Positions 8,837 to 13,433 of a DNA stretch of 32,000 nt are shown piece by piece. The DNA is taken from positions 1 through 32,000 of the forward strand of contig NQJD01000007.1 of NCBI GenBank assembly GCA_004284765.1, read 5' to 3'. A program made the translations under genes and the position numbers. Within the stretch, counting starts at the first letter, position 1; every line of letters begins with the position of its first letter. The DNA is from Candidatus Electronema aureum. Its GTDB lineage: Bacteria; Desulfobacterota; Desulfobulbia; Desulfobulbales; Desulfobulbaceae. Below the pieces are notes generated by a model. The model ran no database searches. It saw only the letters and a program-made list of their open reading frames with translations, and had not been told where the DNA came from.

Positions 8837-9775
8837 CTATCGGGGATTGGCCGCAGGAGGTGCGGGTTGGCTGGCGCGTAGCTGGGCCAGTTCATCCAAC
8901 CACTGCTGCATCTTCTTGGCATAGGGATGCTGCATCGCCCCCATTTCCTGATACAGACTCAGACTCTGCTTCCAAGCTGCTTCCGCCTTGTCGATCTCGC
9001 CCTGTATTCCATACACAATGCCCAGATTGCCGTAGTCGTTTGCCATGCCTTTCTTGTTGCCCAATACTTGTTCAATCTCAAGGCTCTTCCTGTACATCTC
9101 CTCGGCCTTGTCCAGCTTGTCGCGTGTCCGATACACAAGGCCCAGATTGCCGAGAGCCACTGCCTGCACCTCTTTATCCTGATGCGCTTCACCCAAGGCC
9201 AGCACTTTGCGAAAGGCATCTTCCGCCTGCGCCAGCTCCTCTTTGCGGACGAGCAGAAGCCCAAGCATGTTCCAGCCGTCCGCATTGTCCGGGTCAAGCT
9301 GCACCGCCTTCTGGTAGGCAGCCAAGGCCTCTTTGGGGTTGTTCATATACGCCAATGCGCCCAAGTGGCGGGCGGCTGCCGCTGCTTCCGTGTTGGCCTT
9401 CTGCCCTTCCGCCTCCTTGCTGCGCAGTACCTCAGCAAAGATGGCCTGCGCCTTGGCAGTGTGGCCCTGCTGCAATGCTTGCAAGGCATCGTTGATGCTT
9501 GCAGCGGACGCGCCAGTCTTGGACAAGGCGGTGATTGCTTCAGTCAGGGCCTTGTTCTGCTCATCCTTGGCCTCAAGCTGCTGCCTAACCAGCTCTCGTG
9601 CCATCTTGACGACCTCCTCCGATGACATGCCGTAGGTCACAGTCACATTGCCGGTGTTGGAGAAGATGTTACCGTCTCCGCGTACCTCCTGCGTGACGTT
9701 CTCCTGCTTGCCAGTAGCGTGGTCGCCTTGAGCTATGTTCTGCTCGCCGCCCTTGCTGTCAAATGTGTCTCCCAT
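8837..9775 (-). CDS. TPR-repeat protein with Gly/Asn/Thr-rich soluble N-terminal module
   Basis: At least five 34-aa TPR units (e.g. AVALGNLGLVYRTRDKLDKAEEMYRKSLEI, MANDYGNLGIVYGIQGEIDKAEAAWKQSLSL). The N-terminus is MGDTFDSKGGEQNIAQGDHATGKQENV...GNVTVTYG. Confidence 0.85.
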   Translation of the reverse strand: MGDTFDSKGGEQNIAQGDHATGKQENVTQEVRGDGNIFSNTGNVTVTYGMSSEEVVKMARELVRQQLEAKDEQNKALTEAITALSKTGASAASINDALQALQQGHTAKAQAIFAEVLRSKEAEGQKANTEAAAAARHLGALAYMNNPKEALAAYQKAVQLDPDNADGWNMLGLLLVRKEELAQAEDAFRKVLALGEAHQDKEVQAVALGNLGLVYRTRDKLDKAEEMYRKSLEIEQVLGNKKGMANDYGNLGIVYGIQGEIDKAEAAWKQSLSLYQEMGAMQHPYAKKMQQWLDELAQLRASQPAPPAANPR

Positions 9776-9822
9776 CTTGTTTCCTTTGCTACTGTTGCTT
9801 GCTTACACAATCCCCAGCTTGC
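9773..9822 (-). repeat. junction repeat copy A (3' end of TPR-262 + RBS + ATG of TPR-312)
   Basis: A 24-nt core, TTGCTTACACAATCCCCAGCTTGC (9799-9822), is identical to 10609-10632. The flanking ~20 nt are about 70-80% similar. Confidence 0.85.
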
Positions 9823-10591
9823 CGAGGGCCGCTGCCTGCTCATCTTGGTTCTGATGCGCTTCAGCCAAGGCCAGCACTTTGCGGTATGCTTCTTCTGCCT
9901 GCGCCAGCTCCCCTGTGCGGCAAAACAGATGACCAAGCCAAGTCCAGCCAGCCGCATTGTCCGGGTCAAGCTGCACTGCCTTCTGGTAGGCAGCCAAGGC
10001 CGCTTTGGTGTCGTTCATATAAGCCAATGCGCCCAAGTGCCGGGCTGCTGCGGCTGCTTCCTTGTTCGCCTTTTGCCCTTCCGCCTCCTTGCTTCTCAGC
10101 ACCTCAGCAAAGATGGCTTGCGCCTGTGTGGTGTTGCCTTGCTCCAATTCCTGCAAGGCTTCGTTGATGCTTTTGACGGGCGCGCCAGTCTTGGACAAAG
10201 CTGTGATTGCTTCAGTGAGGGCTTTGAGCTGCTGATTTTTATCCGCTATCTGCCGGTCTTTCACGTCCAACTGCGCAAAAAGTCGCTCGGCTGTCTTGCC
10301 CGCATCAACCGAGACAATCTTCTCCTTTTCCATGTAGCTGTTCCAAGCAGATAAACCAATGCCTGAGAACTGGAGCAGAAAGCCCGCCAGCACCAAGACC
10401 AGCCCCAGCCAGAAGCCGTAGCGGAGAATCAGCTTGAGTATCTCGCTGCCGTCTTTCTTGCTTACTTGCGGTAGCAGCCCAGACTTCACAATCTCTTTGT
10501 GCATACCAAAAACCAGCATCAGCACAAAGCCCACCAGCGCCAGCGGGTGGGTGAGATACTGCGCTACTTTGGAAAAGCCTGTGATGTCCAT
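9803..10591 (-). CDS. membrane-anchored TPR protein (about 3 predicted TM helices), C-terminally truncated paralog of 8837-9775
   Basis: Hydrophobic segments are LALVGFVLMLVFG and FWLGLVLVLAGFLLQF. Residues ~123-261 are highly similar to residues ~75-208 of the neighbour. It ends LGKLGIV* in the middle of a TPR unit, where the paralog continues LGNLGLVYRTR. Confidence 0.8.
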   Translation of the reverse strand: MDITGFSKVAQYLTHPLALVGFVLMLVFGMHKEIVKSGLLPQVSKKDGSEILKLILRYGFWLGLVLVLAGFLLQFSGIGLSAWNSYMEKEKIVSVDAGKTAERLFAQLDVKDRQIADKNQQLKALTEAITALSKTGAPVKSINEALQELEQGNTTQAQAIFAEVLRSKEAEGQKANKEAAAAARHLGALAYMNDTKAALAAYQKAVQLDPDNAAGWTWLGHLFCRTGELAQAEEAYRKVLALAEAHQNQDEQAAALGKLGIV

Positions 10592-10632
10592 TTGTTTGCT
10601 CCTGTTATTTGCTTACACAATCCCCAGCTTGC
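10589..10632 (-). repeat. junction repeat copy B (3' end of higA + RBS + ATG of TPR-262)
   Basis: Same 24-nt core at 10609-10632, 810 bp from copy A. It encodes the last residues KLGIV* of HigA. Confidence 0.85.
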
Positions 10633-10894
10633 AGCCTAATGCCTCAACCACCTTTCTGACCGTCTCAAACTTCGGCGAGCTGCCCTGCGCCAAGGCTTTG
10701 TAGAGATTCTGGCGGCTGAGATTGGCCTTCTTGGCTATTTCGCTGATGCCCTGCGCTTTGGCCACCTGCCCAATGGCCATCATCAGCTGCTCGCTGTCGC
10801 CTTCCTCAAAGGAAACCTTGAGGTATTCACGGATCATCTCTGGGCTGTCGAGATATTCAACTGCATCCCATGTTCTCGTGGTTGTTTTATTCAT
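10613..10894 (-). CDS. higA: HigA-family addiction-module antidote protein (HTH, TIGR02684-like)
   Basis: WDAVEYLDSPEMIREYLKVSFEEGD...IAKKANLSRQNLYKAL...PKFETVRKVVEALG is the typical pattern of this antitoxin family. ATG 10894 overlaps the toxin stop by 8 nt. Confidence 0.85.
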   Translation of the reverse strand: MNKTTTRTWDAVEYLDSPEMIREYLKVSFEEGDSEQLMMAIGQVAKAQGISEIAKKANLSRQNLYKALAQGSSPKFETVRKVVEALGCKLGIV

Positions 10895-11195
10895 GATCTT
10901 GCTCCAATTCTTCCATGATGGCTTTTGCCCGTTCAATGTCTTTGCTCTGGCTGGATTTATCGCCGCCGCAGAGGAGGAAAACAACTTTGCACGCTCTTAT
11001 GGTGTAGTAAGCGCGGAAGCCGGGGCCGAAAAAGAAACGCAGCTCAAATAGCCCGTCTCCCAGATTTTTGTGATCACCAAAGCTGCCAAGCTGAATCCTG
11101 TCAAAACGGCTGATGATTCTTGCCCGGAAGGTGATGTCTTTGATGCCAGCCAGCCATCTGTCAAAGACATTGGTTGTCTCAATTTCGTATTTCAT
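10887..11195 (-). CDS. higB: HigB/RelE-superfamily addiction-module killer protein (TIGR02683-like)
   Basis: FDRWLAGIKD...ARIISRFDRIQLGSFGDHKNLGDGLFELRFFFGPGFRAYY...LLCGGDKSSQSKDIERAK matches the conserved pattern of this toxin family. Toxin-first order is typical of hig loci. ATG 11195 is preferred over TTG 11222. Confidence 0.85.
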   Translation of the reverse strand: MKYEIETTNVFDRWLAGIKDITFRARIISRFDRIQLGSFGDHKNLGDGLFELRFFFGPGFRAYYTIRACKVVFLLCGGDKSSQSKDIERAKAIMEELEQDHE

Positions 11196-11242
11196 CTGTT
11201 GACTGTCGCATGGAAGAGACAAGTTGTCAAGAATGCCAGCCG

Positions 11243-11284
11243 CAAAACACAGCGGGCCGGAAAGAGATTCCTCCCTTCCGGCCC
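11243..11284 (-). terminator. intrinsic terminator of fhs
   Basis: GGGCCGGAA (11254-11262) pairs with TTCCGGCCC (11276-11284). On the minus strand the hairpin is followed by GCTGTGTTTTG. Confidence 0.7.
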
Positions 11285-11311
11285 GTTCAGTGCTTCGTAT
11301 GCGGCAGCTTC

Positions 11312-13075
11312 TTAGAACACGCCCTTCACCTTGCCGGTCTCCACATCCACATCAATGCGGCGATAGGCGGGATCAGAAGCCGTGCCCGGCATCAGGGTGA
11401 TTGCCCCTGCCACCGGCACGACAAAGCCTGCGCCCTTGTAAGTGAGGATGTCGCGGATGGGCAGCGTCCAGCCTTTGGGCGCGCCTTTCAGCTTCGGGTC
11501 GTGCGAGAGCGAGAGATGCGTCTTGACCATGCAGGTGGTCATCTGCTTCATCTCCGGGTCTGCCTCCAGCCGCTTCAGCTTGGCCTGCGCTTCCGGGGTG
11601 TAGCTCACGCCGTCGCCACCATAGACTTCTTTCACAATCAGCTCGATGCGCTTGGAGAGCGGGGTCTCTAAGTCGTAGAGGAACTTGAAATCGTTCGGCT
11701 CCTCGCAGGCATCAATAACCGCGTCGGCGAACTCCAGTGCCCCGTCGCCGCCGTACTGCCAATGCTTGGACAGCGCCACACGAGCACCCGCTGCCTCGCA
11801 GATCCGGCGCACGGCCTTGGTCTCGTTGTCGCTGTCCGTGTAGAAGGCGTTGATGCAGACCACCGGGTTGATGCCCGCCTTCTTCACGGTCTCAATGTGA
11901 TGAATCAGGTTCTCGCAGCCCTTCTCGACCCAGCCCACGTTCTCGCCTTTGTACTCCTCCGGCATCGGCCGGCCTGGCACAGGGATGGGCGCACCTCCGT
12001 GGCACTTGAGCGCACGGATGGTTGCGACAACTACGGCGCAGTTCGGCTTGAGGCCGGAGTAACGGCACTTGAGGTTCCAGAACTTCTCGAAGCCGATGTC
12101 TGCGCCAAAGCCAGACTCGGTGATGTTGTAGTCTGCCAACTTGAGAGCAACGCGGTCGGCAATGACCGAGGATTGACCAATAGCGATGTTGGCGAACGGC
12201 CCGGCGTGAACAATCACCGGCTGCCCTTCAATGGTCTGCATCAGGTTGGGGTTGATCGCATCCACCATCCACGCAGTCATTGCCCCTGCCACATCCAAGT
12301 CCGTGGCGGTGATCGGCCTGTCTTGCTTGTCATAGGCCATTACCATCCTGCCGATACGCTCACGCATATCTTTCAGGTCTTTGGCAATGGAGAGGATAGC
12401 CATGATCTCGGAGCTAACCGCGATGTTGAAGCCGGACTGCATGGTCATGCCGTCTGAGGTGCCGCCAAGACCGATGGTGATGTTGCGCAGAGCTTGAGCG
12501 CAGTAGTCCATGATCCAGCGGAACTCTACCTTCTTCGGGTGGATGTCGAGACGGCGCAGGCCGCGCTGACTCAGCTGCTCGTCGGTATAGTTGCTCTCAT
12601 GCTGCATACGGGACGTGAGCGCGACCATGCCGAGGTTGTGGGCGTTCATGATCGCGTTGATGTCGCCGGTCATGCCCAGCGAGAAGGGCGTGAGCGGCAC
12701 ACACTGCGACAGGCCGCCGCCTGCTGCCGAGCCTTTGATGTTCATGGTCGGGCCGCCGGATGGCTGACGGATGGCACCAACCACCGACTTGCCGCGCTTT
12801 CCCATGCCCTGCACCAAGCCCATCGAGCAGGTGGATTTCCCTTCACCCAGCGGGGTCGGGGTGATGGCGGTCACATCAATGTACTTGCCGTCGGGCTTGT
12901 CCTTCAGCCGCTCAAGGATGGCGCGGTAGTCCAACTTGGCTAAATAATGACCGTGCGGCAGCAGCTCCTTCTTGTCCAAGCCGAGCTTCTCACTCAGCTC
13001 ATAGACGGTTTTCATGTTGCCTTCAGCGGCTTCAGCGATTTCCCAGTCAGCGTGTTTGGTGGGATCCAAGGGCAT
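11312..13075 (-). CDS. fhs: formate--tetrahydrofolate ligase
   Basis: Full-length (587 aa) match by eye to FTHFS: [56 protein letters not shown]. Confidence 0.95.
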
Positions 13076-13249: not shown

Positions 13250-13433
13250 TCGCCGGAGCCTGGCGGAATTTGTCGAGTGAGGCAATGTAAGAGACTCGAG
13301 CGAGAGAAGCACCGAGTGTCGAGCGAGGGCAGGAGAGAGACTCGCTCGAGTCTCTTGCAAAACGTCGGGCGAGGAATTTTGAAAACGTCGCTCGATACAT
13401 CAGGAAGGCGTGCCGGGGCGGAATATATCTTGT
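13250..13433. repeat. phased array of degenerate 23-bp units, each starting with TCG (core TCGAGCGAG)
   Basis: Units start at 13273, 13296, 13319, 13342, 13365 and 13388 (exact 23-bp register): TCGAGTGAG, TCGAGCGAG, TCGAGCGAG, TCGCTCGAG, TCGGGCGAG, TCGCTCGAT. The flanking units at 13250 and 13411 share GCCGG.G..GGCGGAAT. A 16-bp perfect inverted repeat is embedded at 13289-13304 / 13341-13356. Confidence 0.7.

Follow-up and report, generated by a model that had tools for sequence, protein, structure and literature searches.

The DNA analysed here, called the window throughout, is a stretch of 32,000 nucleotides (nt) from the cable bacterium Candidatus Electronema aureum (contig NQJD01000007.1 of a 73-contig metagenome-assembled genome (MAG) of 2.76 Mb). 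It carries a higBA-like toxin-antitoxin (TA) pair followed by two adjacent genes for tetratricopeptide repeat (TPR) proteins of 262 and 312 amino acids (aa), TPR-262 and TPR-312. We propose that TPR-262 arose when a fragment of a paralog with a transmembrane (TM) head was captured, once and by a microhomology-mediated event, between higA and the gene for TPR-312, the head of which is soluble; we put the probability of this reading at roughly 0.78.

The junction repeat and the empty site

The boundaries upstream of the two TPR genes are copies of one 38-nt sequence (copy B, 10632-10595; copy A, 9822-9785) that are identical at 35 of 38 positions. Within them lies a 24-nt core that the original prediction had described as identical, and it is indeed exact (9799-9822 = 10609-10632). 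A given 24-mer is expected by simple arithmetic about 2e-8 times in 2.76 Mb, and this one has two copies in the genome, both at this locus. HigA ends in ...LGCKLGIV*, and, as had also been noticed from the sequence, the same terminal residues recur at the end of TPR-262 (...ALGKLGIV*), at the site where TPR-312 reads ALGNLGLVY. Because other higA copies (in G008 and in a remnant on contig C44) also read GCAAGCTGGGCATCGTCTGA and end in ...LGCKLGIV*, with slightly different DNA, and because copy A shares the variants specific to the window, including the TAA stop and the GCAA that follows it, we regard the coding part of the junction as native to higA. The AGGAG of copy B stands 7 nt before the TPR-262 ATG, and in copy A it is mutated to AGTAG.

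A metagenome contig, L082, from JGI 3300047517, has the globin-cbiA-aldehyde dehydrogenase-fhs flank in common with the window at 90-96% identity. On this contig higA is followed by 27 nt and then by a soluble-head TPR gene, with nothing else between them. L082 7698-7991 matches window 10888-10595 (96.9%) and L082 7954-8139 matches window 9822-9637 (92.5%); the 38 nt by which the two matches overlap form a single junction, the consensus of both window copies, which reads GCAAGCTGGGGATTGTGTAAGCAAACAACAGGAGCAAA and then GGAAACAAGATGGGAGAC. Copy B departs from this junction by one private change and copy A by two. Since all three private substitutions sit in the window copies, L082 looks like the ancestral, unduplicated state. 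The window equals the L082 arrangement plus 810 nt, made up of 772 nt of a TM-headed TPR gene and a 38-nt target duplication. The junction native to higA and the empty site in L082 both uphold the original suggestion that the higA 3′ end had recombined with a TPR helix.

The 772-nt fragment extends from about 3 nt before the ATG to a TPR site at the first repeat unit. Every 40-aa repeat unit of the donor begins with GGCAATCTGGGCnTTGTGTAT, and at the right junction this sequence is joined to TGCAAGCTGGGGATTGTGTAA of higA. Such unit starts match the higA end in 17-19 of 31 nt, which places them among the best-matching sites anywhere in the donor genes (mean 8.1, standard deviation 2.5). The left boundary falls between GCAAA and ATG. 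The native 5′ untranslated region (UTR) of TM-headed TPR genes contains ACAGGAG, which provides microhomology at this boundary too.

From these boundaries we infer the following recombination path. The earlier arrangement would have been higA, a 27-nt spacer, and the soluble-head TPR gene, into which a single illegitimate, microhomology-mediated recombination would have inserted 772 nt of a TM-headed paralog, from about its start codon to the first GGCAATCTGGGCnTTGTGTAT repeat-unit boundary, with a 38-nt target duplication. A single step, a double template switch, would account for the structure. The fragment would thereby have acquired the Shine-Dalgarno sequence of the junction, at the ideal 7-nt spacing, together with the last codons and the stop of higA, to become TPR-262. 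The foreign fragment, the short flanking target duplication, and the microhomology junctions resemble those of gene-fragment capture and of template switching of the microhomology-mediated break-induced replication (MMBIR) or fork stalling and template switching (FoSTeS) type; the present case differs in that the donor and the downstream gene are paralogs and that the insertion is in frame and exactly 270 codons long.

Structure and origin of TPR-262

The gene for TPR-262 is 85% identical over 789 nt to a gene on contig C33 that encodes a 431-aa paralog. Because this alignment ends at the TPR-262 stop codon, TPR-262 is the 5′ two-thirds of a TM-headed TPR gene and hence a truncated family member, and it lacks the variable array of 40-aa repeats. 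Full-length counterparts are the C33 gene, the 350-aa P0025, and genes in all 8 sister genomes searched. Its head has two hydrophobic segments (approximately aa 12-35 and 54-80) instead of the three or so TM helices originally predicted, and it carries an extra LQFSGIGLS stretch that is missing in many paralogs. In an AlphaFold2 (AF2) model the predicted local distance difference test score (pLDDT) is about 90 or above in the TPR part and through the last helix, residues 249-261. A TPR array is capped by a single A-type helix after the final repeat; since a terminal A-type helix is what TPR-262 retains, the model suggests that the truncation point is structurally tolerable and that the terminal helix can act as the cap. 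The ratio of nonsynonymous to synonymous substitution rates (dN/dS) of the head is 0.16-0.20 in comparisons with C33 and the nielsenii ortholog, and about 0.2 on the branch of TPR-262 itself as estimated by a three-taxon split of the pairwise values. TPR-262 appears to bear no sign of decay, which is also compatible with a recent truncation.

The best candidate for the donor is P0025, a family member at the der locus, which is 88.5% identical overall, with 3 mismatches in the linker (10237-10400) and 87-94% identity in the remainder. The tract of about 98% identity would be either a recent gene conversion or a donor signature. The C33 gene was considered as the donor and rejected, being only 63-70% identical in the linker, compared with 98-100% for P0025.

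Several points weigh against the capture of a fragment as we describe it. No donor identical to the fragment was found among the paralogs, and the 98% tract shared with P0025 could equally be the outcome of later gene conversion. The event may be old, or its traces may have been obscured by later conversion; the divergence of the junction copies (3 of 38 nt) fits both. The opposite polarity is also conceivable: recombination of the two junction copies with each other could have removed TPR-262 from L082, although the three private substitutions favour L082 as the state that retains the ancestral sequence.

Alternative explanations

An in-situ tandem duplication would yield the same right-hand junction. 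Here the higA end would have crossed over unequally with the TPR site in the same gene, which would have duplicated the junction, head, and core, and conversion from a TM paralog would later have replaced the upstream head; replaced heads and converted tracts are demonstrably common among family members. However, two events are needed, and the TPR-262 core is no nearer to the TPR-312 core (84.5%) than to those of other paralogs (83-88%), nor are the two paired in the tree. Furthermore, the head boundary lies 3-8 nt before the ATG, whereas swaps elsewhere start 20-35 nt upstream; we consider this account improbable. A slightly poorer prospect is a microhomology-mediated deletion in an array of higBA, a full-length TM-TPR gene, a second higBA, and a soluble-head TPR gene, which would have removed the TPR tail and nearly all of the second higBA apart from 24 nt of higA, the present junction copy A. 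Such an origin would be in line with the higA 3′ remnants that deletions have left elsewhere (G000 C44:139-225, G005:C94, and the der locus of the closed genome) and with the TPR-higBA adjacency attested in G008:C5, but no trace of a second higB or of a higA body is present. Moreover, a second higBA is unnecessary, since in L082 higA is directly followed by the soluble-head gene at this locus. Both crossing-over with head conversion and array deletion are less economical than the double template switch.

The original prediction had gone further and described a cassette unit bounded by the repeated junction. In a programmed system of this kind, the junction would be a site for the shuffling of heads and bodies, as in integrons or shufflons, and the repeat does occur at two successive gene boundaries and the heads are truly modular. 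The 24-mer is nevertheless unique to the locus, an outcome that the original prediction itself had named as one that would speak against a cassette: its two copies are private to one strain, and none was found in 60 related genomes of the family with up to 3 mismatches allowed, for which reason a recurring cassette junction was rejected. Other head swaps have different, junction-free boundaries, and no recombinase Pfam family was found among the 16 genes of the 12.8-kb locus (about 6 kb either way). We give this system hardly any credence, and the junction appears to be a single insertion scar and not a recurring cassette boundary. As little can be said for an assembly artefact. The window comes from a short-read MAG of 73 contigs with a repeated gene family, in which contigs break at repeats, and a chimeric join of paralogs might be suspected; however, an independent closed chromosome of the same strain (OW818638.1, 2.94 Mb) is 100% identical to the window across 12,789 nt, and L082 shares both flanks. 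The identity with the closed genome rules out mis-assembly, and the artefact was rejected.

The TPR family and exchange of its modules

The two tandem genes seen in the original prediction share a core, estimated then at about 410 bp and 85% identity, that spans 433 nt with 84.5% identity (10236-9804 compared with 9564-9132; E = 4e-138), and their N-termini are unrelated, as had been stated. At the protein level the identity is 65% across 188 aa (E = 1e-62). Both TPR-312 (TPR_12, 83.7 bits; TPR_1, 82.4 bits) and TPR-262 (TPR_1, 39.9 bits) match Pfam TPR models and are folded into helical repeats in the AF2 models, which places them among the TPR repeat proteins. They are not the only paralogs in the strain, which has at least four family members: TPR-262, TPR-312, the 431-aa C33 copy, composed of a TM head, the core, and 3.6 near-identical 120-nt repeat units (86%), and the 350-aa P0025, which is present only in the closed genome.

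TM-headed TPR genes of this family were detected in all 8 sister genomes searched, at 2-10 matching places each and usually in several copies, and in Electrothrix as well; the other genera of the bacterial family gave weak generic TPR matches only. When 5.8 billion proteins were searched, all named strong matches (E below about 1e-60) came from Electronema or Electrothrix, and a few weaker matches, of 38-43% identity, came from Gammaproteobacteria, Actinomycetota, Pelagibius, and Geminicoccaceae. The TPR family appears to occur almost only in cable bacteria. A tree of the core region was star-like and unresolved, with support for 0 of 13 inner branches, and cannot date the duplication. The dN/dS values within the family, 0.15-0.48, indicate purifying selection, and fragments and pseudogenes are common. 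These features are reminiscent of the hypervariable TPR/WD families associated with NLRs in fungi and filamentous bacteria, which are likewise multi-copy and lineage-restricted, with variable repeat number (338-662 aa here), near-identical internal repeats, mosaic evolution, and pseudogene fragments. In contrast to those families, the present subfamily has no NOD, and gross positive selection was not seen at the dN/dS values given above.

Three observations concern the surroundings and remains of family members. A TM-head remnant (..MNYAWFEKIAPHLATSPLVLIGFVLLLAYGIHW) on the minus strand of G000 C20:527-772 ends after about 35 residues beside a 123-aa open reading frame (ORF) and a multi-copy contig-end repeat, and its flank shows synteny to the region upstream of G003:C4. 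At the C33 locus of another strain (L084 7001-8688, holA to a gene of the metallo-β-lactamase (MBL) fold), the ortholog is split into ORFs of 280, 73, and 78 aa. Tandem repeats of 23/46 nt lie beside family members at L002 824-959 (G000 C33, downstream of the 431-aa gene) and L070 7400-7520, and resemble in kind the 23-bp array at window 13250-13433.

The exchange of heads is evident from a comparison of loci in sister species. G008:C5, with a soluble head, and G007:C62, with a TM head, have unrelated heads between a common upstream flank (91.6% identical) and a common downstream der gene (82%). Orthologous loci thus bear either head between conserved flanks, and the N-terminal modules are interchangeable, as the original prediction had supposed. 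In some relatives, one TM helix follows the soluble head. TPR-312 itself is a mosaic. Its head resembles those of G008:C5 and L082, and its body is 94% identical to that of the TM-headed gene G003:C4 (locus L067), including 328 nt of perfect identity, but only 79.6% identical to the L082 body. Synonymous divergence (dS) between the TPR-312 and G003:C4 bodies is 0.13, compared with 0.35-0.86 for the flanking orthologs of the two genomes. Because the value for the body is far under the flanking background, the identity indicates a recent exchange between species, cross-assembly of MAGs being the less likely explanation.

The soluble head as a possible amyloid-type tag

The soluble head of TPR-312 contains two motifs, with the patterns GGEQNIAQGDHA[IT]G (motif 1) and G.GN[IV]FS[GN][ST]GNV.V (motif 2). 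Motif 1 is found on 8 proteins of this genome, in each of them no more than about 10 residues from the start. Of the 6 proteins with motif 2, 5 have it near a terminus; in the other, a 202-aa protein on C25, it lies about 47 residues from the end. In TPR-312, motif 2 occupies aa 33-46, toward the extreme N-terminus, where it would be expected in a Bell/BASS sensor. One carrier, on C59, is an NB-ARC/TPR protein (Pfam NB-ARC) in which 45 aa align with the TPR-312 head at 64% identity (E = 3e-12), and another is an 849-aa P-loop NLR-like protein (C26:5865-8414). Directly upstream of the latter gene, and overlapping its start, C26:5479-5865 encodes a 128-aa helical protein that scores 25.1 bits with HetE-N (cutoff 25) and ends in GSGHIFSGSGNVTVTK, so that the motif is found at the C-terminus of a predicted Bell/HeLo-like effector. 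The C26 pair matches the published Bell/BASS-NLR layout of filamentous bacteria (Dyrka et al., bioRxiv 10.1101/2020.01.06.895854). Because the tag is shared by NLR-like proteins and by a HetE-N/Bell-like protein that carries it C-terminally, the soluble head resembles an amyloid-signalling motif.

Among 16 genera sampled, the soluble head was confined to Electronema and Electrothrix, and in the protein database it was found in 23 clusters, all of TPR proteins. In the AF2 model of TPR-312, residues 1-63 have a pLDDT below 50 and the TPR part 90-99; an unstructured N-terminus is compatible with an amyloid motif and is not evidence for it. Profile searches with both heads against PDB sequences returned chance-level matches only (E of at least 0.05), and Pfam has a model for neither head.

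Agp of E. coli is a described case of a TPR protein that has a BASS motif but no NOD (bioRxiv 10.1101/2024.11.07.622273). The present family shares with this Bab/Agp system (BASS11) and with the Bell/BASS-NLR systems a short N-terminal motif rich in G, N, Q, and V on a TPR sensor, and the recurrence of this motif C-terminally on a small helical HetE-N/Bell-like protein encoded by that genome. Further similarities to the Bell/BASS-NLR systems are the multicellular host and the high internal identity of the TPR units (3.6 x 120 nt, 86%), and Agp shows that a NOD is not obligatory. Unlike both systems, TPR-312 has no adjacent effector gene, NTPase, or catalytic domain; its head has two motifs, and its paralogs swap the tag for a two-TM module.

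Other results argue against an amyloid-signalling role. No Bell-like gene adjoins TPR-312, the neighbours of which are TPR-262 and an RdgC-like gene; the effector is on another contig beside its own NLR. TPR-312 has no NTPase/NOD (NB-ARC/NACHT), its Pfam matches being to TPR models only, and PADLOC gives generic TPR matches only. A functional reading draws on the sharing of motifs. In the reading proposed here, members of the family would be NOD-less sensors or adaptors, with an output supplied either by a membrane module of their own or by an amyloid-type tag through which they would signal to a Bell-like effector. We suggest, with rather low confidence, that recombination exchanges these two outputs, that the tag recruits the single Bell-like pore-former of the genome so that several TPR and NLR sensors feed one effector, and that TPR-262 is a decoy or dominant regulator. 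As part of the same doubtful proposal, TPR-262, expressed from the higBA promoter and devoid of variable repeats, would regulate the membrane-anchored paralogs. The link to conflict or programmed death made in the original prediction stands insofar as the hallmarks of conflict systems are present in a multicellular cable bacterium; for the predicted role the support is concrete but indirect.

The higBA module and organization of the locus

The higB product matches TIGR02683 (118.5 bits; cutoff 62.85) as well as Pfam Gp49, and that of higA matches PF21716 (110.8 bits) and TIGR02684 (100 bits; cutoff 53.7). With its toxin-first order, genes that overlap by 5 nt (10890-10894), and both NCBIfam models above cutoff, the pair resembles type II TA modules of the HI1419/HI1420 type, and toxin and antitoxin activities are predicted. 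It differs from other such modules in that the 3′ end of the antitoxin gene would here have been a recombination substrate that lent its last codons and stop to a neighbour. In G008:C5, a higBA pair of this lineage follows the soluble-head TPR gene on its downstream side, and higA 3′ remnants are found at the der locus in G005 and in the Candidatus Electronema aureum strain. TA copies or remnants repeatedly adjoin members of the TPR family, a recurrence that may reflect either a functional link or a shared insertion hotspot.

Additional observations were made on TA genes and their surroundings. Upstream of higB (11196-11252), a -35-like hexamer lies within the palindrome TTGACAACTTGTC, which is conserved in G008 and is a candidate operator for HigA. 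In the closed genome, a second, inverted Gp49/HTH_31 TA pair (L083 2480-3006) lies at the der locus between P0025 and the old higA remnant; the 73-contig assembly lacks about 2.8 kb of this locus. A palindromic multi-copy element of about 130-140 nt, with at least 10 near-identical copies, some of them at contig ends (G000 C44:1-225; L083 3046-3282), abuts the 87-nt higA 3′ remnant upstream of der (engA). At L082 7525-7700, a 48-aa HicB-like fragment stands in place of higB, and the first 19 codons of higA are missing; the TA module of L082 appears to be decaying.

The features of the locus are listed in Table 1. Spacers of 21 nt (higA-tpr262) and 27 nt (tpr262-tpr312) separate the genes, and no terminator-like site was found between higB, higA, tpr262, and tpr312. 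Because the spacers are short and no intergenic terminator-like site is present, co-transcription is likely, and the four genes probably form an operon. higA, TPR-262, and TPR-312 share one reading frame, interrupted only by single TAA codons and by stretches of 7 or 9 sense codons. Stop-codon read-through would fuse the three ORFs; the shared frame is probably a coincidence, expected in about 1 of 9 cases. In a synteny comparison, the fhs and RdgC flanks had different neighbours in each of the 8 sister genomes.

Table 1. Positions of features at the higBA-TPR locus of the window
Feature	Position	Strand	Remarks
fhs	13075..11312	minus	
Strong terminator-like hairpin 3′ of fhs	11253..11285	minus	higB promoter region next (11196-11252), with the TTGACAACTTGTC palindrome
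higB-like toxin gene	10890..11195	minus	HI1419-type, RelE/ParE family, 102 aa; TIGR02683, Pfam Gp49
higA-like antitoxin gene	10613..10894	minus	HI1420-type, HTH_3, 93 aa; PF21716, TIGR02684
Junction copy B	10595..10632	minus	Last 6 higA codons, TAA, and 14 nt of intergenic DNA with AGGAG
Fragment of TM-headed paralog, 772 nt	9823..10594	minus	Between the two junction copies; missing from syntenic contig L082
TPR-262	9803..10591	minus	Two-TM head, helical linker, three TPRs, higA-derived ..KLGIV* end
Tract of TPR-262 about 98% identical to P0025	10237..10400	minus	3 mismatches (mismatch map)
Junction copy A	9785..9822	minus	Final residues and TAA of TPR-262, then native soluble-head 5′ UTR GGAAACAAG
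TPR-312	8837..9775	minus	Disordered two-motif head (aa 1-50), helical linker, core TPRs, three 40-aa TPR units
Soluble head	9626..9775	minus	Motif 1 GGEQNIAQGDHATG, motif 2 GDGNIFSNTGNVTV
Conserved core of TPR-312	9132..9564	minus	Paralogous to 9804-10236
328-nt tract of TPR-312	8912..9239	minus	100% identity to G003:C4 gene (another Electronema species)

Significance

The locus offers a clean natural case, with the empty site preserved, of the capture of a gene fragment that would have been made expressible by a ribosome-binding site and a stop codon borrowed from a TA gene. Its TPR genes belong to a family, largely confined to cable bacteria, that evolves by the exchange of whole N-terminal modules and repeat bodies, apparently even across species. 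What is new here as regards function is that TPR-312 bears the tag shared with the Bell/NLR proteins. Cable bacteria are centimetre-long multicellular filaments, for which the sacrifice of single cells has obvious consequences. Should the soluble head be an amyloid-signalling tag, the network for regulated cell death or immunity in these bacteria would be wider than the one Bell/NLR pair suggests and would include sensors that have no NTPase.

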